This document shows, in pieces, positions 3,574 through 63,597 of a DNA stretch of 64,000 bases. Position numbers and translations under genes: made by a program. The first letter of the stretch is position 1. Each line of letters begins with the position of its first letter. The notes under the pieces are model-generated. The model worked only from the letters and a program-made list of their open reading frames with translations. It searched no databases and was not told where the DNA came from. Source of the stretch: an uncultured bacterium (lineage in GTDB: Bacteria; Patescibacteriota; Minisyncoccia; Moranbacterales; UBA2206); the NCBI GenBank assembly GCA_903831805.1, contig CAIKZD010000017.1, forward strand, positions 77,249-141,248. The letters run 5' to 3'.

Positions 3574-3641
3574 TTTATTTTAAGTTTAGGACTTAAACAT
3601 TTTGCCGACTGCAAATGCGTAAGTCTTATAGCTAATTTTTT

Positions 3642-5147: not shown

Positions 5148-5168
5148 AAAAATAGCAATTAACAGCAT

Positions 5169-6731: not shown

Positions 6732-6756
6732 AAATATAATAACAGTGTATTTACAT

Positions 6757-6786
6757 CGCGGAGCTTTCGAGCCCCGCGTTTTTTAT
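6757..6786 (+). terminator. Rho-independent terminator after the hyf-like operon
   Basis: cgcggagctttcgagccccgcg hairpin (cgcgg/ccgcg stem) followed by tttttt. Confidence 0.6.
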
Positions 6787-6798
6787 GTACTTACACGC

Positions 6799-6819
6799 AT
6801 ACCCACCTCCATACCCACA
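6799..6819. repeat. Direct repeat ATACCCACC-N3-ATACCCACA upstream of leuS promoter
   Basis: catacccacc tcc atacccaca; the same 9-mer pair with a 3-nt spacer recurs upstream of alaS (47962..47982). Confidence 0.6.
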
Positions 6820-6836
6820 CGCTCACCTCGTTTTAC

Positions 6837-6865
6837 TTGAAAAACGCGGCTAAGTGGGGTAAAAT
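6837..6865 (+). promoter_or_regulatory. Sigma70-like promoter for leuS (TTGAAA-17-TAAAAT)
   Basis: ttgaaa aacgcggctaagtgggg taaaat, about 60 nt upstream of the leuS ATG. Confidence 0.5.
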
Positions 6866-6926
6866 AGAAAAGTAGACAAATTCACCCGCCTTCGCCAATA
6901 GGCTATGGCGTGGCAAGGTCAACTTT

Positions 6927-9509
6927 ATGGAAGAAAACGCTAAATACAACCCTAATGAAATCGAGGCCAAATGGCAGAAATTTTGGCTTGAAAAAGGGAT
7001 TTCTCTGATAGATAAGGATGATGTGACCAAAGAGAAATTCTATATTTTGGATATGTTTCCCTATCCGTCGGGGGCGGGGTTGCATATGGGGCACACTGAG
7101 AGCTATACGGCTAGTGATGCGGTTTATCGCTATAAGAAACTGCAGGGGTTCAATGTGCTGCATCCACAAGGTTTTGACGCTTTTGGGTTGCCAGCGGAAA
7201 ATTACGCCATCAAGACTGGCATTTCGCCGGTGGAAACGACTAAAATAAATATAATCAATTATATCCGGCAGATGCAGTCTTTGGGTTTCGCCTATGATTT
7301 TTCTGAGCAGGCAGTGACGTGCGATCCGGAATATTATAAGTGGACGCAATGGATCTTTGGAGAATTTTTCAAGCAGGGGTTGGTGTACAAAAAAACATCC
7401 AAGACTAATTGGTGTCCTTCGTGTCAAACGGTGATTGCCAATGAACAGGTAGTGGATGGCAAATGCGAAAGATGCGGGACAGAAATCGAACAAAAAGAAG
7501 TGCCGAGTTGGTTTTTTAAAATTACGGATTTTGCCGAAGAACTTATTAATGGTTTGGACAATGTTGATTGGCCTGAATATACCAAGAAGAATCAGAAAAA
7601 TTGGATAGGGAAAAGTGAAGGAGTGACGGTGAAGTTTCAAATTATGCCCTCTCCTGTCCGGAGTACCGGACATCCTCTCCCGAGTACAGGAGAGGATGAA
7701 TGTATTGAAGTTTTTACGACTCGGGTGGATACGATTTTCGGTTGCACCTATGTCGTTCTGGCGCCGGAGAATGAATTGGTTTCTGTGTTGAAGGAACAAT
7801 GCGAGAATAAGGATGAAATAGAAAAATATATCGAGCAGGCGAAAAACAAGACTGAACTGAATCGGATGGAGGCCAAGGAAAAAACCGGCGTGGAGCTGAA
7901 AGGCGTGCGAGCCATCAATCCGTTCAACGATGAAAACGTCCCTGTTTATATTGCGGACTATGTCTTAGCAAGCTATGGCACCGGTGCAGTGATGGCCGTG
8001 CCGGTGCATGACGAACGGGATTGGGAGTTTGCGGATAACCACAATTTGCCGAAAAAAGGCGTTATTATTCCTAGACCTATAAAATCAGGCTTACTCATCG
8101 GTGATGAAATTGATAATGTCGATGAGTCGTATGAACATTTTGACAATTACGCAAATAAAAAAAAGGATAATATTAGAAAAGGCATAGAAATTTTTGTTGA
8201 AGACGGGACCGTAATTGATTCCGGAGAGTTTAATAAATTAAATTCTGACGAGGCGCGGGAAAAAATGGCGGTGTGGCTGGAAGAAAAAAAGCTGGGCAAG
8301 AAAATCGTGAATTATCGTTTGCGGGATTGGTCTATTTCACGGCAACGTTATTGGGGCTGTCCGATCCCGATTGTCTATTCGCCGGACGGTGAAGCGCATC
8401 TGGTGCCGGAAGAGCATCTGCCATGGAAACTGCCAATGGACGTGGACTTTGTGCCGACTGGTATTTCACCTTTGGCCAAATCCGCGGAACTGAAAAAACG
8501 TACGGAAGAAATTTTTGGAGCGGGTTGGACTGCGGAATATGACACGATGGACACCTTTGTCGATTCATCGTGGTATTTTTTGCGTTATCCTGATGCGCAT
8601 AATGACCAAGAATTCTGTTCCAAAGAGAGGCTGAAAAAATGGTTGCCGGTAGACGTGTATATCGGCGGCGCGGAACACACCTACATGCATCTTTTGTTTG
8701 CTAGATTTTTCGTGAAAGCCATGCATCGGATCGGCATTCTTGATTTTGACGAACCGTTTTTGAAGTTGCGGCATCAGGGGATGGTATTGGATAAGGAAGG
8801 AAAAAAGATGTCAAAGTCCAAGGGGAACGTTATCAACCCGGATGATATGGTGGCAAAATTTGGGGCAGACAGTGTGCGGACCTATATGCTTTTTGCGACG
8901 CCACTGGAAGATGCGGTGATGTGGAATGAGAATAATATTGTCGGAGTGAGGAGGTTTTTGGAGAAAGTTTGGAAATTGCAATACAAAATTACAAATTACA
9001 AATTACAAATTACAAATAAAATCCAAAATCCAAATGATCAAAATAAAAAACTAGTTTCGCTCATTAATAAAACGATCAAAAAAGTCGGGGAGGACATTGA
9101 AAATTTCCGGTTCAATACGGCAGTGAGTCAGTTGATGATACTCGTGAATGAGATGGAAAAACAGACAGAAATAGTCGCTGCTGATTATGAAAAATTACTG
9201 CTTTTGCTAGCGTCTTTCGCGCCGCATATTGCGGAGGAAATTTTCCAAAAAGTTTTGGGTCACGAGGAATCAATATTTTTGCAGAAGTGGCCAGAGTTTG
9301 AGGAAGCGTTGACCAAAGACGAAACAATAAATCTAGTATTGCAAGTGAATGGCAAGGTGCGTGATATGGTATCAGTAGGCGCGGACATTGCAGAAGAGGA
9401 GGCGAAAAAAATCGCGCTGGTCAGTGAGAAAATCCAAAAGCATATCGGCGGCAAAGAGGTCAAGAAAATTATTTTTGTTCCAGGTAAATTGGTTAATATT
9501 GTAATCTAA
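6927..9509 (+). CDS. leuS: Leucyl-tRNA synthetase
   Basis: 860 aa; HMGH (HIGH) and KMSKS motifs; N-terminus YNPNEIEAKWQKFW; CP1 editing domain TTRVDTIFG; contains two atypical in-frame insertions (see findings). Confidence 0.97.
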   Translation: MEENAKYNPNEIEAKWQKFWLEKGISLIDKDDVTKEKFYILDMFPYPSGAGLHMGHTESYTASDAVYRYKKLQGFNVLHPQGFDAFGLPAENYAIKTGISPVETTKINIINYIRQMQSLGFAYDFSEQAVTCDPEYYKWTQWIFGEFFKQGLVYKKTSKTNWCPSCQTVIANEQVVDGKCERCGTEIEQKEVPSWFFKITDFAEELINGLDNVDWPEYTKKNQKNWIGKSEGVTVKFQIMPSPVRSTGHPLPSTGEDECIEVFTTRVDTIFGCTYVVLAPENELVSVLKEQCENKDEIEKYIEQAKNKTELNRMEAKEKTGVELKGVRAINPFNDENVPVYIADYVLASYGTGAVMAVPVHDERDWEFADNHNLPKKGVIIPRPIKSGLLIGDEIDNVDESYEHFDNYANKKKDNIRKGIEIFVEDGTVIDSGEFNKLNSDEAREKMAVWLEEKKLGKKIVNYRLRDWSISRQRYWGCPIPIVYSPDGEAHLVPEEHLPWKLPMDVDFVPTGISPLAKSAELKKRTEEIFGAGWTAEYDTMDTFVDSSWYFLRYPDAHNDQEFCSKERLKKWLPVDVYIGGAEHTYMHLLFARFFVKAMHRIGILDFDEPFLKLRHQGMVLDKEGKKMSKSKGNVINPDDMVAKFGADSVRTYMLFATPLEDAVMWNENNIVGVRRFLEKVWKLQYKITNYKLQITNKIQNPNDQNKKLVSLINKTIKKVGEDIENFRFNTAVSQLMILVNEMEKQTEIVAADYEKLLLLLASFAPHIAEEIFQKVLGHEESIFLQKWPEFEEALTKDETINLVLQVNGKVRDMVSVGADIAEEEAKKIALVSEKIQKHIGGKEVKKIIFVPGKLVNIVI
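8983..9050. repeat. In-frame (CAAATTA)n-containing ~65-nt element within leuS
   Basis: acaaaattacaaattacaaattacaaattacaaataaaatccaaaatccaaatgatcaaaataaaaaa; encodes KITNYKLQITNKIQNPNDQNKK. Confidence 0.8.
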
Positions 9510-10196: not shown

Positions 10197-11218
10197 GCAC
10201 TAAAAACGTCGTCACTATCGGCGGAGGGACCGGCAGTTTCACCCTTCTCTCAGGTCTCAAAAAATATCCGATCAACATTGCGGCTATTGTGTCGATGGCC
10301 GATGATGGCGGTTCGACCGGCGTCTTGCGCGATGAACTCGGGGTGTTGCCACCGGGAGACGTGCGGCAATGTCTGGTGGCACTCTCGGAATCGTCGGAGA
10401 CGCTGCGAAAATTGATGACGTATCGCTTTGAAAAGGGCGGCCTTAAAGGACATAATTTCGGTAATTTGTTTTTGTCCGCTTTGGAAAAAACCGAAGGCGG
10501 GTTCACCCAAGGGGTGGAAGAGGCGGCCAAAATTTTAAACGTGAAAGGGGAAGTCATTCCGGTGACTAAGCAAGACACTAATTTATATCTGCTGCTAAAA
10601 AATGGCAAACTGCTTTCCGGCGAAGAGCAGATCAATCATAATTTTGAAATTGAAAAAGCGGGCATTGCTAAAAACTATTTGCAGCCGCGCGCCGTGGCTA
10701 ACCCGAAAGCTATTGAAAAAATCTTAGCCGCCGACCTGATTGTTATCGGGCCGGGCAATCACTATTGCAGCATCATGCCTAATTTTCTGGTAAAAGGCAT
10801 TGCGGACGCAATTTGTAAATCCAAGGCTAAGGTAGTGTATAACTGCAATCTGGTCAATAAGAAAGGCCATACGGAAAAGTTCACACTAGATGACTATATA
10901 CGTTCGTTGGATAAATATCTGCCGGCGAAAAGGATTGATTTCGTCACTTTTAATGCGACCAAGCCGAATGAGAGTTTGATCCGGAAATATGAAGGGCAGC
11001 GTGCGCTTTTGATTAAATTCAGAGAGAGTGATGAAGAAAGAAGTTATCGCGTAGTGCGGACCGATCTTTTGAGTAAGATAAAACCGAGGTACAGCGCGGC
11101 GGATGTGACCGCTCCGCACCGCGCTTTTATCCGGCATGACAGTGAAAAATTAGCCAAGACCTTGATGATGATTATGGAACTGGGGGAATATGAGAATATA
11201 ATCCGGGATATAATCTAG
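10193..11218 (+). CDS. YvcK/CofD-family (UPF0052) gluconeogenesis-factor-like protein
   Basis: MSTKNVVTIGGGTGSFTLLSGLKKY... GPGNHYCSIMPN; start reassigned to the ATGA overlap; the track ORF from 10130 is over-extended. Confidence 0.7.
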   Translation: MSTKNVVTIGGGTGSFTLLSGLKKYPINIAAIVSMADDGGSTGVLRDELGVLPPGDVRQCLVALSESSETLRKLMTYRFEKGGLKGHNFGNLFLSALEKTEGGFTQGVEEAAKILNVKGEVIPVTKQDTNLYLLLKNGKLLSGEEQINHNFEIEKAGIAKNYLQPRAVANPKAIEKILAADLIVIGPGNHYCSIMPNFLVKGIADAICKSKAKVVYNCNLVNKKGHTEKFTLDDYIRSLDKYLPAKRIDFVTFNATKPNESLIRKYEGQRALLIKFRESDEERSYRVVRTDLLSKIKPRYSAADVTAPHRAFIRHDSEKLAKTLMMIMELGEYENIIRDII

Positions 11219-11227
11219 GTTAGCTAC

Positions 11228-11557
11228 ATGGATATTCGCGCCATTAAAAATGATCGGGTGTATTTTTGGACCAACCACGCCAAGTATAAATTATTGCAAT
11301 ATGGGCTGAGCCCGACGGCTATCAAAAATGTTATGCGGCGGCCGGAAAGGACGGAAGAAGGCATTGCGCCGGAGACGACTGCGGTGATGCGGCGGAAAGA
11401 TGGCAAAAAAGTGAAGCGGGAGATTTGGGTGATGTATCAGAAGTCCGGGATTAAGAAGAAAATTATTTCGGCCTGGATCTATCCGGGAGTCAGTCCGCAA
11501 GATAGGGAAATTTTCGTGCCAGAAGAAGTGTGGGCGGCGTTGAGTAATTTAGAATAA
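11228..11557 (+). CDS. Hypothetical small protein (DUF4258-like?)
   Basis: 109 aa; weak resemblance (HAKYKLLQYGLS...I.NVM) to DUF4258; no partner gene evident. Confidence 0.35.
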   Translation: MDIRAIKNDRVYFWTNHAKYKLLQYGLSPTAIKNVMRRPERTEEGIAPETTAVMRRKDGKKVKREIWVMYQKSGIKKKIISAWIYPGVSPQDREIFVPEEVWAALSNLE

Positions 11558-11567
11558 AAATAAAAAA

Positions 11568-13034
11568 ATGGAAAATAAAAATATTCAGAAAATATCCCAA
11601 GAAAAATTTTTTACTTTGTCGGAATTCCGCCATCGAGTCGGCATCCCTCTCATTATGGCCAAAAAGTTAGTCATGTGGGGCGAGGTTGAAGCGGTGCGGG
11701 CCATTGACGGCACATGGCTCATTGCAGAAACGGAAGTGGTGAAAGTGGCGGAGCTGATCAAAAATCCTTGGAAAAAAATGTACTTTTTCTTTCGCGCCTT
11801 AGGGCCGGGCGTGATTACCGGTGCTTCGGATGATGATCCGAGCGGCATTGGGACCTATTCTTCCGTGGGAGCGCAATTCGGTTTGGGACTTTTATGGATG
11901 GCGGCCTGGATCCTGCCGATGATGATGGCCATCCAAGAAGCGTGCGCGCGGATTGGGATTGTGACCAATCGAGGACTAGCCGGCGTTTTGCAGAAGCACT
12001 ATAGACGCAAAGTGATGGTGGGCATCGTTTCCATCCTTATCCTGGCCAACGTCATCAATATTGGAGCGGATTTGGGTGCGATGGCTAAATCTTTGCAGAT
12101 GCTCATGCATGTCAATTTTTATCTGGCCGCTATCGCCTTTGCGGCGGTCATTATTTTCCTAGAAGTTTTTGTGGGCTATCACACGTATGTCAAAATTTTA
12201 AAATGGTTGGCAATTTCAGTTTTGGCTTATGTGGTAACTGGCATTATTATTAAACCTGATTGGCATGCCGTCCTGGTGGCCACAATTATTCCGAAGATGA
12301 ATTTCAGTCGAGAATATTTGTTTGCGATCGTGGCGGTGTTCGGTACTAGTATCACACCCTACTTGTTTTTTTGGCAGACTTCGGAAGAGGTGGAAGAGAA
12401 CAAAAAAGACAAAAAAATCTTTCGCAGTTTGCATCAGAAAGATGACCGCACGATGGTCAACCGGATTGCCAAAATGCGCACAGACGTCGGCACTGGCATG
12501 ATCTTGGCGAATGTCGTGTTCTTTTTTATTGTTGTTACTACGGCGCAAGTTCTGTTCAAAAATGGCATTTTCAACGTGGATTCGCCGGAGCAAGCGGCTT
12601 TGGCACTTCGTCCGCTCGCCGGCGACTATGCTTATTTGATGTTTGCCTTCGGCATCATCGGGACCGGACTTTTGGCGGTGCCGATCCTGGCGGGCTCCGG
12701 CGCCTATGCCCTGTCTGAAACGATGAAATGGCAAGAAGGATTGGAAGAGAAATTTTCGCGGGCCAAAGGATTCTATCTGGTGATCATTGTTTCCATTCTG
12801 GTCGGACTGGCGCTGAATTTTTTCCATATCAATCCAATCGCGGCGCTCTACTATTCCGCATTTTTGAATGGCGTGATTTCTTTGCCGCTCCTGGTGGCCA
12901 TCATGATCGTGAGTGATGACAAGAAAATCATGGGCCGCGAAAGCAACCCCATGTGGGTCAGAATTTTTGGTTGGTTCGCCGTAGTCTTCATTGCCGGCGT
13001 GCTCACTCTCTCTGGCATATTATATTTCACTTAA
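11568..13034 (+). CDS. mntH: NRAMP-family divalent metal transporter
   Basis: GPGVITGASDDDPSGIGTYSSVGAQFG consensus NRAMP motif; 11 TM; about 60-aa N-terminal extension, so the true start may be an internal Met. Confidence 0.8.
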   Translation: MENKNIQKISQEKFFTLSEFRHRVGIPLIMAKKLVMWGEVEAVRAIDGTWLIAETEVVKVAELIKNPWKKMYFFFRALGPGVITGASDDDPSGIGTYSSVGAQFGLGLLWMAAWILPMMMAIQEACARIGIVTNRGLAGVLQKHYRRKVMVGIVSILILANVINIGADLGAMAKSLQMLMHVNFYLAAIAFAAVIIFLEVFVGYHTYVKILKWLAISVLAYVVTGIIIKPDWHAVLVATIIPKMNFSREYLFAIVAVFGTSITPYLFFWQTSEEVEENKKDKKIFRSLHQKDDRTMVNRIAKMRTDVGTGMILANVVFFFIVVTTAQVLFKNGIFNVDSPEQAALALRPLAGDYAYLMFAFGIIGTGLLAVPILAGSGAYALSETMKWQEGLEEKFSRAKGFYLVIIVSILVGLALNFFHINPIAALYYSAFLNGVISLPLLVAIMIVSDDKKIMGRESNPMWVRIFGWFAVVFIAGVLTLSGILYFT

Positions 13035-41346: not shown

Positions 41347-41439
41347 ATTTTTTTAAATGTAGCATAATATGCACGCTCTTGACAAATTTTTGATATATGC
41401 TAGAATAGTTTGAAATTTAAAACTATTAAATAAACTTAT

Positions 41440-42507
41440 ATGCATAAGGGCAAAGAAAGCAAAAAAACGGCACCAGCGGAAATTTCGGAAGGAGAATTCA
41501 GTTTTTTGGTCATGGCCGAAAAATTATTGATGGATATGTCGGACCGCAGCGGGGAAATTGTCAGACGACGCTTCGGGCTGACAACGGCGCGGGGGGAAAC
41601 GCTGGAAAAGATCGGCCAACATTACAGCATCACTCGAGAACGAGTGCGACAGATTATCGCGGAAGCGGTGAAAAATATTGCGCAAAAATTGAACCATAAA
41701 GACTTTTTTCTCACCGAAGAAAAAATAATTTTTACAGTAATGGAAAATGGTGGTATAATCAGAGAAGTTGATGCGATTGAAAAAATAAAATACGGTTCAG
41801 TGCAAGAAGCTAATGCGATTAAATTTTTTGCCAGTTGTTCTCGCAAGATTTTTGCCGTTGAGGAAAAAGGCATTTTGGAAAAAGCTTGGGTAGTTTCGCG
41901 TGATCTCATTTTTGAAATCAAGAGACTCATCAGAGAAGCGGAAAAAACTGCCTTGAAAGAAGGTAATCTTCTATCAGACAGCGAAATGTTGGAGAGATTG
42001 ATGGCGATTATGCCGGAAACGCCGAAGGAAAAGATAATGAATTTTCTGTCAGTGGCGGAACGGGTGAAAAAGAATAAATTTGGAAAATGGGGCATGATAG
42101 ATTGGATGGAAGTCTCACCGAAAGGGACGCGGGAGAAAGTGCATTTGATCCTCAAGGAACACAAGAGGCCTTTGCATTTCACCGAAATTGCCGATTTGAT
42201 CGACAAATATGAATTGAGCAAGCGAGGTGCCCATCCTCAGACAGTGCACAATGAATTGATCAAGGACGAACGATTTGTGCTGGTTGGGCGGGGGATTTAT
42301 GCTTTGGCCGAATGGGGCTATTTTTCCGGTACGATCAAGGATATTATCGAAGTGATTTTGAAAAAATCTGGACGGCCTATGAAGAAAGATGAGGTGATGG
42401 CCGAAGTACTGAAAATGCGCCGAGTGAAAAAAACGACTATTATGATAAATTTGAATAATCGAAAATTTTTCAAAAAAGAAGGCGAATTCTACCGATTGAA
42501 AAAATAA
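41440..42507 (+). CDS. Sigma-70 region-4-like HTH protein with long C-terminal domain of unknown function
   Basis: RRRFGLTTARGETLEKIGQHYSITRERVRQIIAEAVKNI resembles sigma70 region 4.2; no region 2; 355 aa. Confidence 0.55.
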   Translation: MHKGKESKKTAPAEISEGEFSFLVMAEKLLMDMSDRSGEIVRRRFGLTTARGETLEKIGQHYSITRERVRQIIAEAVKNIAQKLNHKDFFLTEEKIIFTVMENGGIIREVDAIEKIKYGSVQEANAIKFFASCSRKIFAVEEKGILEKAWVVSRDLIFEIKRLIREAEKTALKEGNLLSDSEMLERLMAIMPETPKEKIMNFLSVAERVKKNKFGKWGMIDWMEVSPKGTREKVHLILKEHKRPLHFTEIADLIDKYELSKRGAHPQTVHNELIKDERFVLVGRGIYALAEWGYFSGTIKDIIEVILKKSGRPMKKDEVMAEVLKMRRVKKTTIMINLNNRKFFKKEGEFYRLKK

Positions 42508-42542: not shown

Positions 42543-43814
42543 ATGAACAACGCTTCAGACATTAGTTCTATATTCGGAGTTTTTATCCAATTTTTCCAGC
42601 TGTTCTGGTGGATCATTCTGCCAGTCTTTTTGTATAAACTTTTTACATTTCTTTGGATAGACTTTTCGGGTTGGTATGGGGCCAATTCTTGGACCGCTCT
42701 CAAAAAATGGACCTTTCTGGAAATCATTCCGCCTCGGGAAATCGAACGCGGACCGAAAATGATGGAAAATATTTTTACGGCTATGACTGGCGTCCTGACG
42801 ACTTACAATACTTTCGACGTCTATTTAAAAGGGGCGTGGTACCATGATCGTTTTAGTCTGGAAATGGTCGGAGAAGAAGGCAAGATGCACTTCTATATTC
42901 GCACCCAAAAAAATTATCGGGCGATGATAGAAGCGCACATTTATGCTCAATATCCGGATGCTAAAGTGCTTGAAGTGGGTGATTATACGGAAAATTTTCC
43001 CAGAGTGGTGCCGAACAAGTTTTGGGATTTGTGGGGGACGGATTTTGAGTTTGTCGGAAAAGACGCTATTCCGATTAAGACCTATGAAAAATTTGAGGAA
43101 ACTGTCACCGGGGAAATGATTGACCCAATTTCGGCTCTGGCGGAAGTGATAGGCGCCTTGGGCCCCGGTCAACACATCTGGCTGCAATATGTTTTGCAAC
43201 CCTTGCCTGAGCCGGACAATAAGTCAGACGAGCATATAAGTGTGGTCAAGAAGTTGAAAGGTGAAACAGTGGTGGAACCGATGGGTTTGGCGGGACACCT
43301 GATGGATGTTATTGCCAATATTCCCGCTGCCTTTTCCGCTCCGGTGGTTTTCGGCGCGGCCGAAAAGAAAGAGCTTGGTCCGCTGGAATTTCGTCTTTCT
43401 CCGACAGAAAAAGATATCCTGAAAGCCACGGAAGAAAATTTAGGCAAGAATCTGTTCCGGACAAAAATGCGGTTCATCTATATCGGCCGCAAGGAAAATT
43501 TCGACAGGTCCAACGTCTCCTCTTTCATCGGCGCCCTCAAGCAATTTAATGATATAAATTACAATAACCTGAAGCCTGAGGATGTCAGTAAGACTTATGG
43601 TTCTATATTTTTCATCAAGCAACGTGTGGATTTTCGCAAAAGAAAAATCTATGCGCGTTACAAAAAACGCAATGTGGATGGTAAGAAAATCATTTTTTCC
43701 ACTAAGGAATTGGCCACAGTGTTTCATTTCCCTGATTTGAGCGTGAAGGCGCCTTCCATTACCCGGACGGAATCAAAACTGGGCAGTGCTCCGTCTAATT
43801 TGCCTGTTGGATAA
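42543..43814 (+). CDS. Membrane-anchored hypothetical protein, partner of downstream ATPase
   Basis: N-terminal hydrophobic segment (FIQFFQLFWWIILPVFLYKLFTFLWI), then ~370 aa soluble domain with no recognised motif. Confidence 0.55.
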   Translation: MNNASDISSIFGVFIQFFQLFWWIILPVFLYKLFTFLWIDFSGWYGANSWTALKKWTFLEIIPPREIERGPKMMENIFTAMTGVLTTYNTFDVYLKGAWYHDRFSLEMVGEEGKMHFYIRTQKNYRAMIEAHIYAQYPDAKVLEVGDYTENFPRVVPNKFWDLWGTDFEFVGKDAIPIKTYEKFEETVTGEMIDPISALAEVIGALGPGQHIWLQYVLQPLPEPDNKSDEHISVVKKLKGETVVEPMGLAGHLMDVIANIPAAFSAPVVFGAAEKKELGPLEFRLSPTEKDILKATEENLGKNLFRTKMRFIYIGRKENFDRSNVSSFIGALKQFNDINYNNLKPEDVSKTYGSIFFIKQRVDFRKRKIYARYKKRNVDGKKIIFSTKELATVFHFPDLSVKAPSITRTESKLGSAPSNLPVG

Positions 43815-43905
43815 TTGTTTGTTTAATAAAAATAATTGTATTGGTACGAGATCCTTCACCCCGCCGCGGCGGGGCTCAGGATGATTTCGTCCATTTTTTA
43901 CCAAA

Positions 43906-45861
43906 ATGTCTGAAATCAATTTTTTCGCCAAAACTAATTTTAGGAACAAGGAGGTGGTTTTTGGCATCAAGGAAGATGACCGCCGCCGCCATATGTATGT
44001 TATTGGAAAAACCGGAATGGGTAAATCCAATATGTTGGAAAATATGGCTATCCAAGACATTCGGAATGGCAAAGGCGTTTGTGTGGTCGATCCGCACGGC
44101 GAATTTGCCGAAAAAATGGTGCGGGCCATCCCGGCTAATCGTATCAATGACCTGGTTTATTTCAATCCGGCGGACAAAGAATTTCCGATTGCCTTTAATA
44201 TCTTGGAGTCTGTTGAGGAGGATAAAAAAAACTTGGTGGCCAGTGGTATGATGGGGGTGTTCAAAAAAATCTGGCCGGATGTGTGGAGTCCGCGAATGGA
44301 ATATATTCTAAATAATACAATTCTCGCCCTTTTGGATTACCCCGGTTCCACTATGCTCGGCGTGAACCGCATGATGAGTGATAAGGATTTCCGGAAGCGT
44401 GTTTATCCGAAAATTAAAGATCCGGTGGTAAAATCTTTTTGGATTAATGAATTTGATCAATGGGATGATAAGTTCAGAAAAGAGGCGGTGGCGGCTATCC
44501 AGAATAAAGTTGGACAATTCTTGTCGTCTTTCGTTATTCGCCACATCGTCGGTCAACCGAAATCTACGATCGATATGCGGGAAATTATGGATAACGGTAA
44601 GATTTTGATTGTGAACCTTTCCAAAGGACGAATCGGCGAAGATGCGATGCGGCTTTTGGGTGGTATGGTGGTCACCAAGATCCAGTTGGCGGCCATGGGA
44701 CGGGTGGACATTCCAGAAGAAGAAAGAAAAGATTTCTATCTGTATGTCGATGAATTCCAAAATTTTGCCACGGAAGCTTTTGCTAACATTTTGTCTGAGG
44801 CGAGAAAATATCGCTTGAGCCTGATCTTGGCCCATCAATATATAAACCAATTGATTTTTGACGGCAACGCGACGGTGCGAGACGCTATCTTTGGCAATGT
44901 CGGCACGATTGTTTCTTTTCGGGTGGGGGCGGAAGATGCGGAAGCGCTGGAAAAAGAATTTGATCCGGTTTTTCTGATGAATGACATCGTGAATCTTTCC
45001 AAATACCGAATATATTTGAAATTAATGATTGATGGTATCGCCGGTGACGCTTTTTCCGCTACGACTTTGCCGCCGGCCGACCTGGCCGATACAATCGGTA
45101 ATGAAGAAAATGCCATCAAAGTTTCGCGCGAGCGATATGGCCGATCGCGCGCGGAAATTGAAGAAAAAATTGCTCGCTGGAGCGGCATGTTTGAGTTTGA
45201 TGAACCCAAGAAAACAGCCCCGGACGCGGTGAAAAATTATCCGGGAGCTTCCAGGATTACGCTTAAACCGACCGGGCCAGCTGTCAGAAAAGATTTTAGC
45301 CCGGCTATGCCGAAGCCAGTGGCGCCTATGTCAGCGCCGCTGATAAGCAAAAATATTTCGAGTAATAGCTATGACCCGGCTCGCGCAGTCAAAGAAAATT
45401 TATCCAAGCCGGAACTTCCGCCGAAAGCTGCTGTCGCAAAAACTGAAGTTGCTGCGGTTGCCCCACCGGCCGAGCGGCAAATGTTTGATACGGTTTGTGA
45501 TAGCTGTGAAGAAAAAATTCAAGTGCCTTTCGCCCCTGACCCCAATCGTCCGACTTTTTGTCGGGAATGCTTGAAAGAATATCAAAGAGCTAGAGCCAGA
45601 TCGCAGCGAGAAAAAACTGAACAGTCGCCAGCCCCAAGCGGAGGTGTGCCGGACCACGCGCGGCCTACTCAGGAAAAACAAATAAGCTCGCCCGAACAAG
45701 TGGATGATTATGAGCCTGTAGCCATGTCGTCAGATGAAAAACCGATGCGGCTGACCCAGATGGTGCATATGGCACCGAAAAAATTTCAAAGTACGCGGAG
45801 AAAACCGGAAATTGACCGGGCGGGCGTACGAGACTTGATAAATAAAACAAAAAATAACTGA
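43906..45861 (+). CDS. HerA/VirB4/VirD4-like (DUF87/AAA_10-type) P-loop ATPase with C-terminal CxxC-x19-CxxC zinc ribbon
   Basis: Walker A IGKTGMGKSN, VDPHGE, Walker B FYLYVDEFQNF, LILAHQY; disordered C-terminal tail bearing CDSCEEKIQVPFAPDPNRPTFCRECL. Confidence 0.7.
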   Translation: MSEINFFAKTNFRNKEVVFGIKEDDRRRHMYVIGKTGMGKSNMLENMAIQDIRNGKGVCVVDPHGEFAEKMVRAIPANRINDLVYFNPADKEFPIAFNILESVEEDKKNLVASGMMGVFKKIWPDVWSPRMEYILNNTILALLDYPGSTMLGVNRMMSDKDFRKRVYPKIKDPVVKSFWINEFDQWDDKFRKEAVAAIQNKVGQFLSSFVIRHIVGQPKSTIDMREIMDNGKILIVNLSKGRIGEDAMRLLGGMVVTKIQLAAMGRVDIPEEERKDFYLYVDEFQNFATEAFANILSEARKYRLSLILAHQYINQLIFDGNATVRDAIFGNVGTIVSFRVGAEDAEALEKEFDPVFLMNDIVNLSKYRIYLKLMIDGIAGDAFSATTLPPADLADTIGNEENAIKVSRERYGRSRAEIEEKIARWSGMFEFDEPKKTAPDAVKNYPGASRITLKPTGPAVRKDFSPAMPKPVAPMSAPLISKNISSNSYDPARAVKENLSKPELPPKAAVAKTEVAAVAPPAERQMFDTVCDSCEEKIQVPFAPDPNRPTFCRECLKEYQRARARSQREKTEQSPAPSGGVPDHARPTQEKQISSPEQVDDYEPVAMSSDEKPMRLTQMVHMAPKKFQSTRRKPEIDRAGVRDLINKTKNN

Positions 45862-45868
45862 AATAAAA

Positions 45869-46054
45869 ATGAAATTTGAATCGAACCGAAGAACGCTGAA
45901 TTATCTGTCGTTGTGCATGCTGATACTTTTTAACGGCGTACTGCTTGGATTTTTGGTGTATGTTGGCCATAATTTAATCGACAGCACTAAACAGTCGCAT
46001 ATATTGGAAGTGTCGCAGGATATGCGCAACGAAACCTTGCCATCGAAACGGTAG
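45869..46054 (+). CDS. Small single-TM protein
   Basis: 61 aa; TM YLSLCMLILFNGVLLGFLVYVG; starts 8 nt after the ATPase stop. Confidence 0.35.
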   Translation: MKFESNRRTLNYLSLCMLILFNGVLLGFLVYVGHNLIDSTKQSHILEVSQDMRNETLPSKR

Positions 46055-47426: not shown

Positions 47427-47708
47427 ATGGCATATACTGACGATGATTTAAAAAATTTAAGCGAGGAAGAGAAGCGGAAACAGTTGCGTAATTTCCAGAT
47501 GGAGATTATCGTAATGGATTCTGATACGCGCAAAATTCAAAATAAAAAGAGCACCTTGGAAATGGAAATCAGGAAGCTGCGAATGGATCAGGAAAGGATG
47601 CGGATTGAGATGGAAAATAAGAAGAAGGAATATGACACGCTCGGTTATCAAATCATCAAAAACGAAGAAGATATGAAAAGATTGAAGAAAAAAATTAATT
47701 TATTATAA
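47427..47708 (+). CDS. Small coiled-coil hypothetical protein
   Basis: 93 aa, highly charged K/E/R heptad-like sequence. Confidence 0.4.
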   Translation: MAYTDDDLKNLSEEEKRKQLRNFQMEIIVMDSDTRKIQNKKSTLEMEIRKLRMDQERMRIEMENKKKEYDTLGYQIIKNEEDMKRLKKKINLL

Positions 47709-47719
47709 ACAATAAAAAT

Positions 47720-47953
47720 ATGGCATCAGAATTTGCCAGCATCGTAATCGCGCAAATTGGCAGTCGAAGCACCGAAGTGGGGAAAGCGGTATATAATTAC
47801 CAAGACAGCGTTAAGGACATTGAAAGAGAGCTGGATCGCGGATCAATTGATGTGGCCGCGGCTATGACAAAGTTACGCGCACGTTTTTCCTATCATTTAA
47901 CTGATGACGATTATCGTAAAATCGAAAAGGAAACTAGGTATAACGTTAAATAG
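47720..47953 (+). CDS. Small hypothetical protein
   Basis: 77 aa; no recognisable motif. Confidence 0.35.
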   Translation: MASEFASIVIAQIGSRSTEVGKAVYNYQDSVKDIERELDRGSIDVAAAMTKLRARFSYHLTDDDYRKIEKETRYNVK

Positions 47954-53231: not shown

Positions 53232-55247
53232 ATGCATCAAGCATTTTACATCGACATTGACGAAGAAATCACTTCCATCGTGGAACGGCTGCGACATGCG
53301 CGGGCGAGTGAAATAATTCTGGTGGTGCCTAAACGCGCCTTGCTCATTCAGAGTATCGTTAATTTGCGTATCCTTAAGCGTGAGGCGGATGAAGCCAGGT
53401 TGCAATTGATGATGGTGACGCAGGATAAGCTCGGAAAAATTCTCATTGAAAAAGCTGGGATTTTTGTGCAGCAGAAAATGGATAATATCTCTGATGAGGA
53501 AATCAGTGTGGGCGAAGAAAGTCAGCCGCTGCCGGAGTTCAAAGCGGAGGAGAAGGTCAAAAGTGGTAAGGACCGCTTGAATACTATCGGATCAAGCAGT
53601 TATTTCGATGAAGAGATGGCTAAGGAAAATATTAAAGCCGAACAGATCAAATTACAAATAGAAAAACCTAAAGTGCCAGAGCAAAAATTAGGAAAAGAAG
53701 TTCTGACCAATCGGGAATTGGTTTTAGTTCCGGACAAAGCGGCCGAAAGAAAATTGATGGTGAGACCGGCGTTCGATTTGAAGCCGGCCACACCGGTGGC
53801 AAAAATTCCAGTGATGGCTCCTACGGTGCCTAACGCTAGTGATTTTTTTAATAGAGACGCTAAGTCCAACTCTGTGCCTGCCCCTACTCCTGCTTCTGCC
53901 CCTATTTCTAATCCCAATCTCAACCGTACTTCCAGTCCAAGCTCGAATCCAAATCCCAAGCCAAATTTTCAAGACAAAAAAATAGAAGATTTTTTCTATC
54001 AGTCAAGCGCAATCACGGCGCAGCCGGAAAAAGCGCCGAGTAAAAATAGCAATCCTGAAACTTATAATTTGACCGGCCAAGTGCATCGTTGGTTCTGGGT
54101 TTTTGGTGTTGCCGCATTTCTTTTGGTGGTGGGCATTGGCGGGTATGTTTTTGTTCCGAAAGCGGCCTTGGTAGTTTCAGTCAAGGCGGATTATAAATCT
54201 ATTGATGCGGAGGTCATGGGGAAGATTGCCAGTCCGTCAGTCGACCTCGCCAGCGGCACTATCCCGGCTGCAACCGCTTCTTCTAAACAGGAAGTGACCG
54301 AAAGTTACCCTGCGTCCGGCAGTGGACTTGTTTCCAACCAACACGCGCATGGCACCGTCACGATTTATAATGAATATAGTTCCAGCCCGCAACCACTGGT
54401 GGCCACTACGCGATTCTTGACCGGCGACGGAAAACTGTTCCGCTTGGTCAAAGGCGTGACCGTGCCGGGGACCAGTCTTGAGAATGGTCAAGTTAAAAAA
54501 GGAGAAATAGAAGCTGAGATAGTGGCGGATCAGTCAGGTGATGGCTACAATGTCGGTCCTTCAACGTTCAATATTCCCGGTTTTAAAAGTAGCGGGGTTA
54601 AATATGAAAAAATTTATGCCACTTCAAGTGCGGCGATGACCGGCGGCGGCAATGGAACTAGCGGCGCCAGCGAATCAAAAGTGATAACCGATAATGATAT
54701 AGCCGCGGCCAAGAGCAAAATTCTGGTTTCACTGAATCAAAAGCTCGAAGAAGATATGAAAAAATCCGGCGGAGACGATGCCCTTATTCTGGATGGGGCC
54801 ATAAACCAGTCGGATGTGGTTTACAAACTTTCCAATTCAGCTGGAGACGTGGTGAATTCCTTCCAGCTAACCGCCAGCACCGAGGCCAAAGCTATAGTAG
54901 TCAAACAGAATGATCTTAAGGCGGCCATCGCGGCCATGCTAACTTCGGCGGAGGATGGAAAGAGCGTCGATCCGGGTTCAATTAAAACTGATTTTTCCAG
55001 AGCGGATGTTGATTTTGCCAATGGCACGATCAATATAAAATTCCATGCCACGGGGAAAATTAACTCGGCGGTCACGGCGGAGGTCATTAAGAAGTCTATT
55101 CTTGGCAAGAATGAGGAGCAGGTGAAGGACTATCTTGGCAGCTTACCCAATATTGAAAAAGTGGAGGTGAATTATTGGCCGCCGTTTGTGAGTGGCCGAA
55201 TCCCGCTGATATCCAGCCGTGTAAGCGTGACCCTTGACCCGACTTAG
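53232..55247 (+). CDS. Bitopic hypothetical protein (cytoplasmic N-domain, S/P/N-rich linker, TM, large extracytoplasmic domain)
   Basis: 671 aa; TM WFWVFGVAAFLLVVGIGGYVFV near residue 290; FtsQ/RodZ-like topology but no sequence signature recognised. Confidence 0.5.
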   Translation: MHQAFYIDIDEEITSIVERLRHARASEIILVVPKRALLIQSIVNLRILKREADEARLQLMMVTQDKLGKILIEKAGIFVQQKMDNISDEEISVGEESQPLPEFKAEEKVKSGKDRLNTIGSSSYFDEEMAKENIKAEQIKLQIEKPKVPEQKLGKEVLTNRELVLVPDKAAERKLMVRPAFDLKPATPVAKIPVMAPTVPNASDFFNRDAKSNSVPAPTPASAPISNPNLNRTSSPSSNPNPKPNFQDKKIEDFFYQSSAITAQPEKAPSKNSNPETYNLTGQVHRWFWVFGVAAFLLVVGIGGYVFVPKAALVVSVKADYKSIDAEVMGKIASPSVDLASGTIPAATASSKQEVTESYPASGSGLVSNQHAHGTVTIYNEYSSSPQPLVATTRFLTGDGKLFRLVKGVTVPGTSLENGQVKKGEIEAEIVADQSGDGYNVGPSTFNIPGFKSSGVKYEKIYATSSAAMTGGGNGTSGASESKVITDNDIAAAKSKILVSLNQKLEEDMKKSGGDDALILDGAINQSDVVYKLSNSAGDVVNSFQLTASTEAKAIVVKQNDLKAAIAAMLTSAEDGKSVDPGSIKTDFSRADVDFANGTINIKFHATGKINSAVTAEVIKKSILGKNEEQVKDYLGSLPNIEKVEVNYWPPFVSGRIPLISSRVSVTLDPT

Positions 55248-60044: not shown

Positions 60045-60878
60045 ATGAAAAAAGAGTTGGTATTTTTCGAAAATTTTAAGATTCGCCGCCATTATGATGA
60101 AAAGGCGGAAATTTGGTATTTTTCGGTGGTGGATATTATCGCTGTGCTTTTAGAACAAAAAGATTTTCAGGCTGCTAGAAATTATTGGAAAGTTTTGAAA
60201 AATCGCCTTAAATCTGAGGGTAGCGAAGTGGTTACAGAATGTAACCGGTTGAAAATGAAGGCAGAAGACGGAAAAATGCGTGAAACGGATGCCGCAAACC
60301 CAGAAACAATTTTTCGTCTAATTCAATCTGTGCCCAGTCCTAAAACTGAACCAATCAAATTGTGGTTGGCTAAAGTGGGTTATGAAAGAATCCAAGAAAT
60401 GTCCGATCCGGAAAAATCTTTGGATCGTGCGCGCGAAAATTGGGAGAGACATGGGCACACTAAGAAGTGGATCCAGCAAAGGATGATGGGACAGGAAATT
60501 AGGAATAAGCTGACTGATTATTGGCAAGATAACGGCGTCAAAGAAAAAGAAGAGTTTGCTATTTTGACCAATATCATTCATCAAGAATGGACAGGGCTAA
60601 CCGTCAAAGGACATAAGAAGTTAAAAGGTTTGAAAACACAGAACCTGCGCGACCATATGAGCGATGCGGAGTTGGTTTTCACAGCTCTCGCGGAATTGTC
60701 CACGCGTCAAATTGCCCAAACGTTGGAAGCTAAAGGTATGGGTGAAAATAAGGTGGCTAGCAAGCGTGGCGGGTCAGTCGCTAAGAAGGCAAGAATTGAT
60801 TTGGAATTGAAAACTGGTAAAAAAATAGTTTCGAAGGATAATTTTTTGCAAAAGCGACGTGTTGAGAAATTGAAATGA
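60045..60878 (+). CDS. DinD-like DNA-damage-inducible protein (Bro-N domain family)
   Basis: N-terminal FENFKIRRHYDEKAEIWYFSVVDIIAVLLE...EPIKLWLAKVGYERI resembles Bro-N/DinD; 277 aa. Confidence 0.6.
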   Translation: MKKELVFFENFKIRRHYDEKAEIWYFSVVDIIAVLLEQKDFQAARNYWKVLKNRLKSEGSEVVTECNRLKMKAEDGKMRETDAANPETIFRLIQSVPSPKTEPIKLWLAKVGYERIQEMSDPEKSLDRARENWERHGHTKKWIQQRMMGQEIRNKLTDYWQDNGVKEKEEFAILTNIIHQEWTGLTVKGHKKLKGLKTQNLRDHMSDAELVFTALAELSTRQIAQTLEAKGMGENKVASKRGGSVAKKARIDLELKTGKKIVSKDNFLQKRRVEKLK

Positions 60879-61107
60879 CGCAGCTGTGGATAACTTCCTG
60901 CAAAATAATGTTTCATAAAAAGGAAAAATCGGGTATAATAAAAATAGCGCTTCTGTCATTCCTGCGTAGGCAGGAATCCAGTCACATATCATTAAGTTTC
61001 TACACTAGATTCCCGTATACACGAGAATGACAAATACGCGTAAGACTATTCCTAATAACATAAAGCATAATTTTTTTAAGCCTAACTAAATCTTTGCACT
61101 GCATGCA

Positions 61108-63597
61108 TTGAGCGCTATGCGCTGGTGCCTAAAAGGTGCGGGAAACAACAAAATAAATGAAAAATCTACTCTCTCTCTCTCTCTCTCTCTCTTAACTAAG
61201 AAAGTAAACTTTTTCCACCGAAACTTTTTCCGACTGGCGCTCATCATTTTCTGTGCCGGTTTTTTTGTGTTTGGATTTGGAGGTGAGGCGAAAACTAGTG
61301 TGGGTTCAAATTATTGGAAAACATATTTTTCCGGCCCGGAGCTGGAAGCGGTCAAGAAGAATGCGCAGAAATATACTCTGGCGCAAATCAAAAACAAAAG
61401 CGATCAATGGCACGGTGTCATTTCGGGTTTCAACATTAAAAACGGTTCTGTCACCAATGATGATATTGATAGCGTGGATGCCGGCAAAGTTAAAAATCTG
61501 GGAGATGTCATTGATAAAAGAATTTCTGAAAGTTCAACCCCTCAAGATTTTTCAGCTAGTCATTTGACTGGAACATATGCGGCGCTGAATGGTTCGAATA
61601 TCACGGGTATCACGGCAAGTCAAGTTGGGGCCATTCCATATAACGGCGACGGGTCAAGTCTATTAGGAGTTCAGCGAGTTGCAAATGTAACTGATTTTGG
61701 AGCGACAATGGATAATAATTCAGATGATGATATTGCTGCATTTGAGTCGGCAGCTTCCCATTCTTCAAATATCGTTGTACCTGGCAGTGGCACATATTCA
61801 ATTTCAAAATTTACCATTCCAGCTAATAATATAACAATATCGTGTCCAGAAAGGGCAATAATTAAACTTAAAGACGGTACAGATGATAATCTTATATATG
61901 CGCATCAAAAATCAGGAATTACAATTAATAATTGTGTACTAGATGGAAATCAAGCAAACCAAACTATTTATTCAGGATGGGCGATTTACGTAGAAGGAAG
62001 TTCGAATATTAAGATAGAAAATAATGAGGTGATGAATTCAGCAAATGAAGGTATAAGAGTTGTCGAATCGACTGAATGGTGGATAAGTAATAATTATACG
62101 CATAACAATGTTAATAGTGGCATCGTTTCATTAGGTGGTACCACAAACAATAGTGAACGTGGTCATATTATTGGAAATACGTCAGTCGAGGATGGTAATA
62201 TTGGCAATGGAGCTTCTTGCATTAGTGTTAATAGTCAATATACCGATGTAGCAAATAATACTGTGAAAAATTGTGGCGGATCGGGAGTTGGACATGGATT
62301 TACTATTGGGCACTACAGTGTTACGGGTCCAACATACGATGCATCATTCTCAACTTTTAGTAATAATATTATTGATACAGTAGTGTCTAGCTGTTATTTC
62401 ATAGATTCAGTGCAAGGAATCGAAATTGCAGGAGGTATTTGTAAAAATACAGGAAGTTTAGGACATGCCATTTCGGGATATACAGGTGCGACGTCATTGC
62501 TTCATCATGATATTAAAATTCATGACGTAATAATACAGTCTCCATATATAGGAAAAAATGCGATATCTCTTTATACTGGTTACAACTATTCAATTACTGA
62601 TAATATTATAACTGGTGTGCATAATGGAACTGGAATTGCTTTATATGGTGTTCAAGATTCACTCTTATCAAATAATATTTTGACAGGTAGTACTGGTGGA
62701 GGAAATGGCATAAATTTAGCAGCAACAGGTGGCATAGAATCAACCGGCAATGTGATTTCCGGCAATAAGATAAACACATTCAACCGTTGTCTTGCGAGTG
62801 CAAATTCCTCAACAAATAATAACTGGACAAGTAATGAATGCGTTGGTAGCGCTCAAATAAATAGTCTCGTTGGTACTAATAAACTTTGGGATGTTGGAGG
62901 TATTCCCGGCGGGCAGTCTATTACGGGCAGTACTGTTTCAACAGAGGGATTAATGCTACATTCTAACACTAGCAATAACGGTCTGATATCGTTAGGGTCA
63001 AATATTGTAGCGGATGAGGCTCATACTCGATTTGGAATAGGTATTGCGCCTTCAACAACATTGCAAGCAGTATCAACAACTGAACAACTGCGACTCGGCT
63101 ATGACTCTTCTAATCATGCATCATTTACTGTTGGATCGGCTGGAGCATTGACCATCCAGAATTCCGGCAGTGATATGCAACTTTATACTGGCGGAGTAGG
63201 AATTGTTCGAACGGGCTCTGCTACTGGAGACGCTGGGCAATTAAGAGTAAGAAGTAACGCGAAAGATGTTGCCACTCTGGGTGATACCGGAGGAGTTAAT
63301 GATGGTGGATTATTTTTATATAATAGTGATGGAACGACAAATAATGTCCTTCTTAGATCAAATGGAATGAGTTTTATTAACGGAGGCAACGTCGGCATTG
63401 GCACGACAACGCCTGCCGCCGCACTCGATGTCAACGGTCAAGTGAAAATCCAAAAAAGTTCTTCGCAGCCTTTTGCTTGCGATATGACGCACGATGCAAC
63501 TCTAGCGGTCACTAGCGCGTATCGAACTTGTATTTGCAAAGGTACGTCCACCACCTGGGTCTTCACCACTGACGGCACGACAAGTTGTATTTGGTAA
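61108..63597 (+). CDS. Large secreted/surface protein with right-handed parallel beta-helix (pectate-lyase-fold) repeats
   Basis: 829 aa; signal-anchor FFRLALIIFCAGFFVFGFG; many N.I..N/G.G.G beta-helix repeat units (e.g. NNCVLDGNQAN, SNIKIENNEVMNSANEGIRV, NNYTHNNVNSGIVS); ATG start uncertain. Confidence 0.6.
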   Translation: MSAMRWCLKGAGNNKINEKSTLSLSLSLLTKKVNFFHRNFFRLALIIFCAGFFVFGFGGEAKTSVGSNYWKTYFSGPELEAVKKNAQKYTLAQIKNKSDQWHGVISGFNIKNGSVTNDDIDSVDAGKVKNLGDVIDKRISESSTPQDFSASHLTGTYAALNGSNITGITASQVGAIPYNGDGSSLLGVQRVANVTDFGATMDNNSDDDIAAFESAASHSSNIVVPGSGTYSISKFTIPANNITISCPERAIIKLKDGTDDNLIYAHQKSGITINNCVLDGNQANQTIYSGWAIYVEGSSNIKIENNEVMNSANEGIRVVESTEWWISNNYTHNNVNSGIVSLGGTTNNSERGHIIGNTSVEDGNIGNGASCISVNSQYTDVANNTVKNCGGSGVGHGFTIGHYSVTGPTYDASFSTFSNNIIDTVVSSCYFIDSVQGIEIAGGICKNTGSLGHAISGYTGATSLLHHDIKIHDVIIQSPYIGKNAISLYTGYNYSITDNIITGVHNGTGIALYGVQDSLLSNNILTGSTGGGNGINLAATGGIESTGNVISGNKINTFNRCLASANSSTNNNWTSNECVGSAQINSLVGTNKLWDVGGIPGGQSITGSTVSTEGLMLHSNTSNNGLISLGSNIVADEAHTRFGIGIAPSTTLQAVSTTEQLRLGYDSSNHASFTVGSAGALTIQNSGSDMQLYTGGVGIVRTGSATGDAGQLRVRSNAKDVATLGDTGGVNDGGLFLYNSDGTTNNVLLRSNGMSFINGGNVGIGTTTPAAALDVNGQVKIQKSSSQPFACDMTHDATLAVTSAYRTCICKGTSTTWVFTTDGTTSCIW
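61169..61192. repeat. (CT)12 dinucleotide microsatellite in the 5' coding end of the beta-helix protein gene
   Basis: ctctctctctctctctctctctct read in frame as LSLSLSLL between the ATG and the signal-anchor. Confidence 0.9.

Follow-up and report, generated by a model that had tools for sequence, protein, structure and literature searches.

A large part of bacterial diversity belongs to the host-dependent Patescibacteria. To our knowledge, the genes encoding type IV secretion systems (T4SSs) are the only patescibacterial genes experimentally shown to be essential for epibiotic growth. The canonical type IV coupling proteins (T4CPs) TrwB of R388, VirD4, TraD and DotL combine a P-loop motor with a C-terminal adaptor tail. 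They carry their own N-terminal transmembrane (TM) segments, have no large VirB4-like N-terminal domain and are linked to relaxase or mating-pair-formation genes. In Patescibacteria, 5,713 VirD4-type homologues have been counted in 2,918 of 3,035 genomes (96%), just 148 of them near virB4, and VirB4 has been found in 2,417 genomes (Quinonero-Coronel et al., 2025; PMC12102498). In S. epibionticum the T4CP homologue is dispensable whereas T4SS genes are essential, and exaptation of the orphan homologues "cannot be ruled out" (PMC12102498). Here, we consider a locus found in 64,000 nucleotides of a Moranbacterales genome (contig CAIKZD010000017.1, positions 77,249 to 141,248; this whole stretch is called the window). 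It encodes a protein of the DUF8128 family followed by a T4CP-type ATPase, which almost certainly belongs to the same set of orphan VirD4-type homologues. The published survey makes no mention of a DUF8128 partner, a split architecture, a zinc-ribbon tail or fused Bacillus relatives (PMC12102498). Term searches of a 2025 review of T4SS nomenclature returned neither DUF8128 nor a split or fused architecture, and no mention of DUF8128 or PF26449 was found in the searchable full-text literature.

Sequence comparison reveals single proteins of about 825-910 aa whose N-terminal half is collinear with the 423-aa DUF8128 protein and whose C-terminal half is collinear with the 651-aa ATPase; that the two genes are halves of one protein is shown by the fusions on Bacillus plasmids, by the phage family phrog_5156 and by phage G gp156. 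A tblastn search of the 72,556 plasmids of PLSDB with DUF8128 led to the N-terminus of a Bacillus plasmid protein of about 900 aa, named 'DUF87 domain-containing protein' (E 6e-5), of which WP_229762801.1 (904 aa, NZ_CP086062.1) and WP_144625398.1 (913 aa, NZ_OX419581.1) are examples. In pairwise comparison, DUF8128 residues 86-420 match residues 34-313 of the 904-aa protein (E 4e-12) and ATPase residues 27-375 match its residues 346-704 (28% identity, E 3e-40); when the DUF8128 profile is compared with the fused protein, hhalign returns a probability of 98.4% (E 4.5e-15). Both PF26449, the Pfam entry for DUF8128, and PF01935 are present in a single polypeptide in P0391, a fragment with 86% identity to the fused N-terminal region. 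Along the 824 positions of phrog_5156, DUF8128 falls at 76-357 and the ATPase at 395-818, the ATPase match reaching 2e-62. Phage G gp156 (825 aa) is retrieved both with the predicted DUF8128 structure (Foldseek, E 6.7e-19) and with the ATPase sequence (tblastn, 5e-41). The split/fusion relationship is thus backed by five independent lines, namely the plasmid search, the pairwise alignments, the profile comparison, the P0391 fragment and the phage proteins. In the alignment, the conserved junction at the C-terminus of DUF8128 falls on the segment that links the two domains of the fused Bacillus protein.

On the Bacillus plasmids, the fused gene is followed by genes for a Replic_Relax relaxase, TcpC, TcpD/TcpE, a VirB4-like ATPase and a lytic transglycosylase (cell-wall hydrolase). 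It heads a Tcp-like conjugation operon beside the relaxase, where coupling proteins are normally found. PLSDB types these Bacillus plasmids, of 25-28 kb, as non-mobilizable. Fused and split versions share collinear halves, a junction motif (EELA..H.P ... P.LP) and a TrwB-like Walker A/B motor. The fused proteins, experimentally uncharacterised, are single polypeptides of mobile elements, with no TM segment detected by hydropathy and no CxxC-x17-CxxC tail, whereas the version of the window is split, membrane-anchored, chromosomal and core. Identity of the fused Bacillus protein with pLS20 VirD4 was rejected; the latter has 786 aa and two N-terminal TM segments. Relatives of the ATPase also occur in SPO1-like phages (gp27.4). 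Its closest relative in PLSDB is a stand-alone 395-aa protein on a Sulfitobacter mediterraneus plasmid (NZ_CP081110.1; 41% identity, E 1e-90), encoded at 5935-7122 of related locus L166. It lacks both DUF8128 and the zinc ribbon, and its gene is surrounded by recombinase and transposase genes.

The sequence of the ATPase places it in the FtsK/HerA/VirB4/VirD4 superfamily, where its best score is that of a T4CP. TrwB_AAD_bind (PF10412) matches residues 23-341 with 46.3 bits (cut-off 20.5; 3.6e-12), T4SS-DNA_transf (PF02534) scores 26.8 bits (cut-off 20.1), TraG-D_C (PF12696) 26.7 bits (cut-off 22), and DUF87 (PF01935, 'Helicase HerA central domain') passes its cut-off at 2e-9. Together, these profiles cover both the nucleotide-binding domain and the all-alpha domain region, in keeping with a motor homologous to that of canonical T4CPs. 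Among PDB sequences, just TrwB (7e-6) and DotL (2.8e-4) are detected, and the NCBI name is 'type IV secretion system DNA-binding domain-containing protein'. The VirB4 models remain below their cut-offs (AAA_10, 14.6 bits for 27.5; VirB4_plasma, 24.5 for 590; CD1110, 19 for 325), as do the HerA equivalogs (16-17 bits for 800-970), and hhalign with TrwK gives a probability of 1.9%. FtsK_SpoIIIE (PF01580) also stays under its cut-off (12.9 bits for 24), which led to dropping the idea that the protein replaces FtsK; the one lead towards it within the candidate phyla radiation is that FtsK is mentioned in papers on Saccharibacteria TM7x. In a preliminary description made from the letters of the window, the ATPase had been called HerA/VirD4/VirB4-like and of DUF87/AAA_10 type. 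The motifs then quoted are all in the translation (IGKTGMGKSN, DEFQNF, VDPHGE at residues 61-66 and LILAHQY at 306-312) and the superfamily holds, as does DUF87; HerA, VirB4 and AAA_10 do not, any resemblance to VirB4 lying instead in the predicted fold of the partner. By hydropathy, neither the ATPase nor any of 120 homologues has a TM segment; unlike in canonical T4CPs, the anchor of the system is on a separate protein, DUF8128. Related locus L158 harbours, at 11120-12346, an additional, divergent ATPase gene (45% identity), 2.5 kb 3' of the DUF8128-linked copy, which fits the roughly two T4CP homologues reported per Patescibacteria genome (PMC12102498).

The structure of DUF8128 was modelled with AlphaFold2 from a deep alignment, with a mean predicted local distance difference test score (pLDDT) of 87.4 and a predicted template-modelling score of 0.83. 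When the model was compared with the PDB using Foldseek, as had been proposed for the partner, each of the top 13 matches was to the full-length TrwK/VirB4 protein from R388 (E 1.2e-5 to 1.5e-4, probability 1.00), and nothing else was significant, the next match having a probability of 0.18. TrwB, FtsK and HerA structures were absent among the 50 matches listed. An earlier model from a shallow alignment (pLDDT 64.7) already gave TrwK as the answer. DUF8128 has no P-loop and shows a beta-alpha-beta-beta-alpha-beta topology. Because of these two features, and because no other ATPase-domain structure is listed, the match was tentatively assigned to the N-terminal domain of VirB4. The fold of DUF8128 would therefore be that of a cytoplasmic, VirB4-N-terminal-like domain, as judged from the model. 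A precedent is found in TrsD-TrsE of pGO1, where a VirB4-N-terminal-like protein is encoded by a separate gene directly 5' of a DUF87 ATPase; there, as in the VirB3-TrsD-VirB4 clusters of Patescibacteria, a small membrane protein stands alongside, as in the window (PMC12102498). The likeness has its limits, since DUF8128 has no sequence similarity to TrsD, the ATPase of the window scores as T4CP and not as VirB4, and no other secretion genes are adjacent.

The partner had first been described as belonging to no known family, and both it and the zinc ribbon as features foreign to the classical families. Both are in fact catalogued. The assignment of the 423-aa protein to PF26449 (DUF8128) comes from the precomputed Pfam annotation, which is the same for an identical protein (P0001) and for each of the 120 homologues listed. 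The family comprises 2,576 clusters at 50% identity (E <= 1e-3), or 820 at E <= 1e-30. The names given to homologues are Candidatus Moranbacteria, Parcubacteria or Patescibacteria, and the source labels of 20 divergent representatives read just 'Parcubacteria' or 'Patescibacteria group'. As announced, hydropathy gives the DUF8128 protein of the window one TM-like segment; such an N-terminal segment is present in 116 of 141 full-length representatives. The charges flanking the helix do not discriminate the orientation in the membrane. At the other end of the protein, E(L/M)A(T/S)x(F/Y/W)HxP is kept in 114 of the 141 representatives, and P..NLP (PPxNLP) lies at most 4 residues from the C-terminus in 106. 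The terminal NLP peptide is retained even when 50-150 variable residues are inserted ahead of it. PPxNLP thus behaves as a docking peptide on a flexible tether would, and the low pLDDT (54-60) of the last ~25 residues of DUF8128 is consistent with flexibility. In members with a long linker (for example P0169, P0179, P0189, P0211, P0237), a second motif, 'YDNDYFEKRFA', stands between the domain and PPxNLP; its conservation suggests an additional docking site, absent from the DUF8128 of the window.

The C-terminal third of the ATPase is of a different nature. Whereas residues 1-428 are nearly invariant among orthologues, the remainder is a variable, low-complexity tail with two conserved islands. 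The first is a zinc ribbon, recognised at residues 524-558 by PF23477 (zf_Tbcl_2; 42.6 bits, cut-off 27, 4.7e-11) and by TIGR04272 (45.3 bits, cut-off 36, 5.2e-12). The 19-residue spacer given for it previously has to be corrected to 17 (C531-C555). CxxC-x17-CxxC is present in 99 of 119 ATPase orthologues, and the spacer has 17 residues in 99/99. The second island is a terminal PMRLTQMVHMAPKKF-like motif ending in '...APKKF'.

Two sets of related loci were used to follow the genes, 79 from genomes, where DUF8128 is 32-81% identical to that of the window, and 80 from distant metagenomes, where it is 30-47% identical. The ATPase gene lies directly 3' of DUF8128 in 75 of the 79 genome loci; of the other four, three are cut off by the end of the contig (75/76). 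The same holds for 61 of the 67 distant loci with room for it. The pair, whose co-conservation had been put forward for checking, recurs in about 150 independent loci, an arrangement far beyond chance. Coupling proteins are usually poorly conserved in sequence, unlike the ATPase of the window, whose core is better conserved than any other gene around it. Across Moranbacteria loci, its N-domain is mostly 83-91% identical, to be compared with ~50-77% for DUF8128 and ~61-70% for TopA; in the distant loci it retains 54-77% identity.

The conserved cluster begins with a helix-turn-helix (HTH) gene, the stop of which is 35 nt from the DUF8128 start. According to Pfam, its product carries Sigma70_r4 (5.5e-10, residues 30-80) and HARE-HTH (8.3e-12, residues 235-292). 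A homologue is found 5' of DUF8128 in 77 of the 79 genome loci, and the gene is directly 5' in 53 of the 59 distant loci with room. A small DNA-binding gene just 5' of the system recalls TrwA for TrwB; we take TrwA to be the product of the open reading frame (ORF) upstream of trwB, which the R388 record annotates only as 'hypothetical protein'. At the 3' end, the 61-aa ORF has one TM-like segment by hydropathy (residues 15-33). In 34 loci at the Moranbacteria level, the start of a small TM ORF falls at -25 to +52 nt relative to the ATPase stop, and 33 of these 34 share the motif N[QR]K.S..LAF...SFL.AWF...G.KI...NS.AFN..KR. No such conserved ORF was seen in the distant loci, and the 61-aa protein has no family match in Pfam, NCBIfam, PADLOC or PHROG-type profile scans. 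This mini-TM ORF is a real, lineage-restricted gene, apparently coupled translationally to that of the ATPase. The first reading of the three ORFs, their positions and their close spacing are all borne out (spacers of 91 and 7 nt), and so are the single TM segments of the two membrane proteins. The locus is best read as a vertically inherited Parcubacteria operon made of the HTH protein, DUF8128 and the T4CP-type ATPase, joined in Moranbacteria by the mini-TM protein. The features are collected in Table 1.

Table 1. Positions, in the window, of the genes of the operon and of the elements recognised in them
Feature	Position	Strand	Basis or detail
Candidate operon promoter, sigma-70-like (TTGACA-16-TAGAAT with TG)	41379..41406	+	11/12 match
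Gene of the 355-aa Sigma70_r4 + HARE-HTH / winged-helix DNA-binding protein	41440..42507	+	First gene of conserved cluster
DUF8128 gene, 423 aa	42543..43814	+	ORF list
Single TM helix, DUF8128 residues ~10-28 (predicted)	42570..42626	+	Kyte-Doolittle 19-mer score 1.96
Conserved C-terminal junction of DUF8128, ELATVFHFPD...VKAP...SAPSNLPVG	43704..43811	+	Family comparison, aligns with fused linker
Perfect 16-nt GC palindrome CCCCGCCGCGGCGGGG, then weak hairpin and T-run	43859..43898	+	DUF8128-ATPase spacer
T4CP-type ATPase gene, 651 aa	43906..45861	+	ORF list
T4CP-type P-loop motor domain, ATPase residues 1-428	43906..45189	+	Pfam matches, conservation
Walker A	44005-44028	+	IGKTGMGKSN at residues 33-42, Walker A G34-S41
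Walker B	44737-44754	+	YLYVDE residues 278-283; DEFQNF 282-287
Variable low-complexity tail, ATPase residues 429-651	45190..45861	+	Conservation profile, two conserved islands
Zinc ribbon C531-x2-C534-x17-C552-x2-C555	45475-45579	+	Tail island 1
Terminal PMRLTQMVHMAPKKF-like motif	about 45739-45795	+	Tail island 2
Mini-TM ORF, 61 aa	45869..46054	+	ORF list

The region is core chromosome, an ordinary housekeeping neighbourhood and not an element. Before the locus, the window contains a hydrogenase/Mrp-like cluster, LeuRS, Dxs, ParA/ParB, RelA, TopA and DprA, and past it MnmA, AlaRS, TyrRS, FtsA, ribosomal proteins and RpoA. In many Moranbacteria genomes the locus occupies this very place, between dprA/topA and mnmA/alaS. 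GC content is flat at the locus, and the sole tRNA of the window, at 18.9 kb, does not form a boundary there. The candidate promoter stands 34 nt 5' of the HTH gene, in the divergent spacer shared with dprA; it is suggestive only as the operon promoter, the numbers of promoter and terminator sites found by scanning the region not exceeding the shuffled background. As for the palindrome in the DUF8128-ATPase spacer, it appears local to the lineage of the window, because this spacer is usually about 28 nt in relatives (median) versus 91 nt here. With its hairpin, it may represent a local attenuator or an inserted element.

Some other features of the window may be mentioned. At 11-6731, subunits resembling those of Mrp antiporters and the membrane part of NADH dehydrogenase accompany a fused 30-kDa/49-kDa subunit that also matches the NiFeSe hydrogenase large subunit; the cluster resembles a group-4-type membrane-bound hydrogenase and is notable for a reduced genome of the candidate phyla radiation. 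Next to mnmA, on its 3' side, come two short, charged ORFs of 93 and 77 aa (47427-47953). Both are likewise called as genes in the organism's other assemblies, and a similar ORF follows mnmA in related locus L078. Directly after ftsA, a 671-aa ORF (53232-55247) has no Pfam match. Genes for a Bro-N domain protein and for a beta-helix protein of 829 aa (60045-63597) are found where GC drops to 0.39 (versus ~0.45), in what may be a small mobile or phage-derived insert.

That DUF8128 and the ATPase together constitute a split T4CP appears highly probable. With a more moderate degree of confidence, we favour as overall explanation a domesticated, split, membrane-tethered translocase of T4CP type. 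Here, DUF8128 supplies the sole TM helix and a domain modelled as VirB4-like, and the ATPase a TrwB/VirD4-like motor with its flexible zinc-ribbon tail. The PPxNLP end of DUF8128, probable counterpart of the linker of the fused form, would probably dock on the N-terminal strands of the ATPase and thereby tether a hexameric motor to the membrane on the cytoplasmic side. The mini-TM protein would add a further, lineage-specific anchor. Driven by nucleoside triphosphates, the motor would engage a nucleic-acid cargo at the membrane. DNA would be the most likely one, although DNA rather than protein is a call that can be made about equally well either way. By analogy with TrwA and TraM, which serve TrwB and TraD, the zinc-ribbon tail and the upstream HTH protein may be imagined as adaptors of cargo or partners. 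The motor would have been domesticated from a conjugative element of monoderms into a chromosomal function with no obligatory link to the VirB4 secretion system that the genomes carry elsewhere.

Several observations weigh against this view. The ATPase, T4CP-like as it is by sequence, is a member of no curated T4CP equivalog; all those of NCBIfam score far below their cut-offs (SXT_TraD, 52 bits for 366; conju_CD1115, 44 for 250). The template-modelling scores between TrwK and DUF8128 are only 0.33-0.38, with no aligned ranges in VirB4 in the Foldseek output. The DUF8128 profile gives no hhalign signal with TrwK, TrsD or TrsE, nor with a Bacillus VirB4-like protein, TrwB or TrsK. It finds nothing among PDB sequences, even at E 10, and a permissive Pfam scan of 51 DUF8128 members retrieved no VirB4 N-terminal family. 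About 9% of the distant DUF8128 loci are without an adjacent ATPase, and the tie of the HTH gene to the translocase may be merely syntenic. Cargo and tail docking are themselves predictions from sequence and model. Lastly, the extreme conservation of the ATPase is awkward beside the non-essentiality of the T4CP homologue of S. epibionticum, should the latter be a DUF8128-partnered one.

Among the other explanations, the one to be taken most seriously, if still rather doubtful, is that of a dedicated but distantly encoded coupling protein, which would serve a chromosomal VirB3-TrsD-VirB4 T4SS and deliver effectors or DNA for exchange between epibiont and host. The T4CP-like motor would suit this role, as would the fused relatives in conjugation operons beside a relaxase. 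T4CP tails commonly bind substrates or adaptors, and that of the window has two conserved islands. Moreover, t4cp is often apart from virB4, and Moranbacteria carry VirB3-TrsD-VirB4 elsewhere, one genome having it at genes 360-362 and T4CP matches at genes 192 and 722 (PMC12102498). What speaks for a function of another kind is that the conserved linkage is to an HTH gene of RNA-polymerase type and not to secretion genes, and that the conservation of the ATPase far exceeds what is usual for coupling proteins. T4CP homologues are also present in more genomes than VirB4 and rarely near virB4, and in S. epibionticum T4SS genes are essential when the T4CP homologue is not (PMC12102498). The previous view of the locus as a minimal translocation machine, with pilin or VirB6-like genes to be looked for nearby, is not supported, as it contains nothing channel-like. 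No gene for VirB4, VirB6, VirB8, a pilin, a relaxase or an integrase was found in the 64-kb window, and none for VirB4, VirB6, VirB8, a pilin or a relaxase appeared in the 1.73 Mb of flanks of the 159 related loci, searched by single-sequence tblastn of limited sensitivity. Canonical T4CPs are linked to such genes; for the ATPase of the window, no linkage of this kind was found. Whether the translocase works with a distant VirB4 system or independently of it, both possibilities appear evenly balanced.

Two further readings have much less in their favour. The mad8 model of PADLOC matches ATPase residues 15-347 at 3.3e-18, several HerA models reach 4e-8 to 5e-4 and, as seen above, DUF87 is also detected, so that one might think of a HerA-type helicase or an anti-phage ATPase (mad8 of MADS, or HerA-partnered) with DUF8128 as effector or sensor. 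This is nevertheless highly improbable given the HerA equivalog scores. No NurA, Sir2, methyltransferase or other MADS gene was found nearby, PADLOC matching in the neighbouring genes one sigma region 4 only and nothing in DUF8128; the two outcomes that the preliminary description had set against its own proposal, a HerA with NurA or a pair lacking co-conservation, did not come about. Besides, defence systems are patchy and fast-evolving, whereas the pair is syntenic and its ATPase the most conserved gene nearby. Even less credible is accessory mobile DNA, with the locus belonging to an integrated conjugative or phage-like element, still active or decayed. The closest relatives outside the candidate phyla radiation do sit on Bacillus plasmids and phages, haloarchaeal plasmids and the Sulfitobacter plasmid, but the syntenic position shared by many Moranbacteria genomes, the flat GC, identity levels that match or surpass those of housekeeping neighbours, and the failure to find an integrase, a relaxase, a channel gene or a tRNA boundary all contradict it.

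Orphan T4CPs and both domain families were known. The split/fusion relationship, the VirB4-like fold predicted for DUF8128 and the conserved operon are new. Coupling-protein homologues occur in about 96% of Patescibacteria genomes, and the Parcubacteria homologue described here is half of a conserved two-gene protein, whose missing half, DUF8128, forms a family of about 2,600 clusters with no detectable literature. The single-chain relatives of genetically tractable Bacillus plasmids and phages offer a concrete, testable handle on function. The combination of a T4CP-like motor with a VirB4-like N-terminal module could also bear on the relation of coupling proteins to VirB4. It may tentatively be imagined that the orphan T4CP homologue is not a part of secretion at all and that, with its VirB4-like N-module, it forms a domesticated, two-gene, membrane-tethered DNA motor working with the HTH protein. 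If this were true, the motor would serve housekeeping or host dependence, for example the handling or import of DNA in cells unable to make nucleotides. Should the domesticated translocase prove independent of any secretion system, it would provide a clear case of a conjugation motor recruited into core cell biology.

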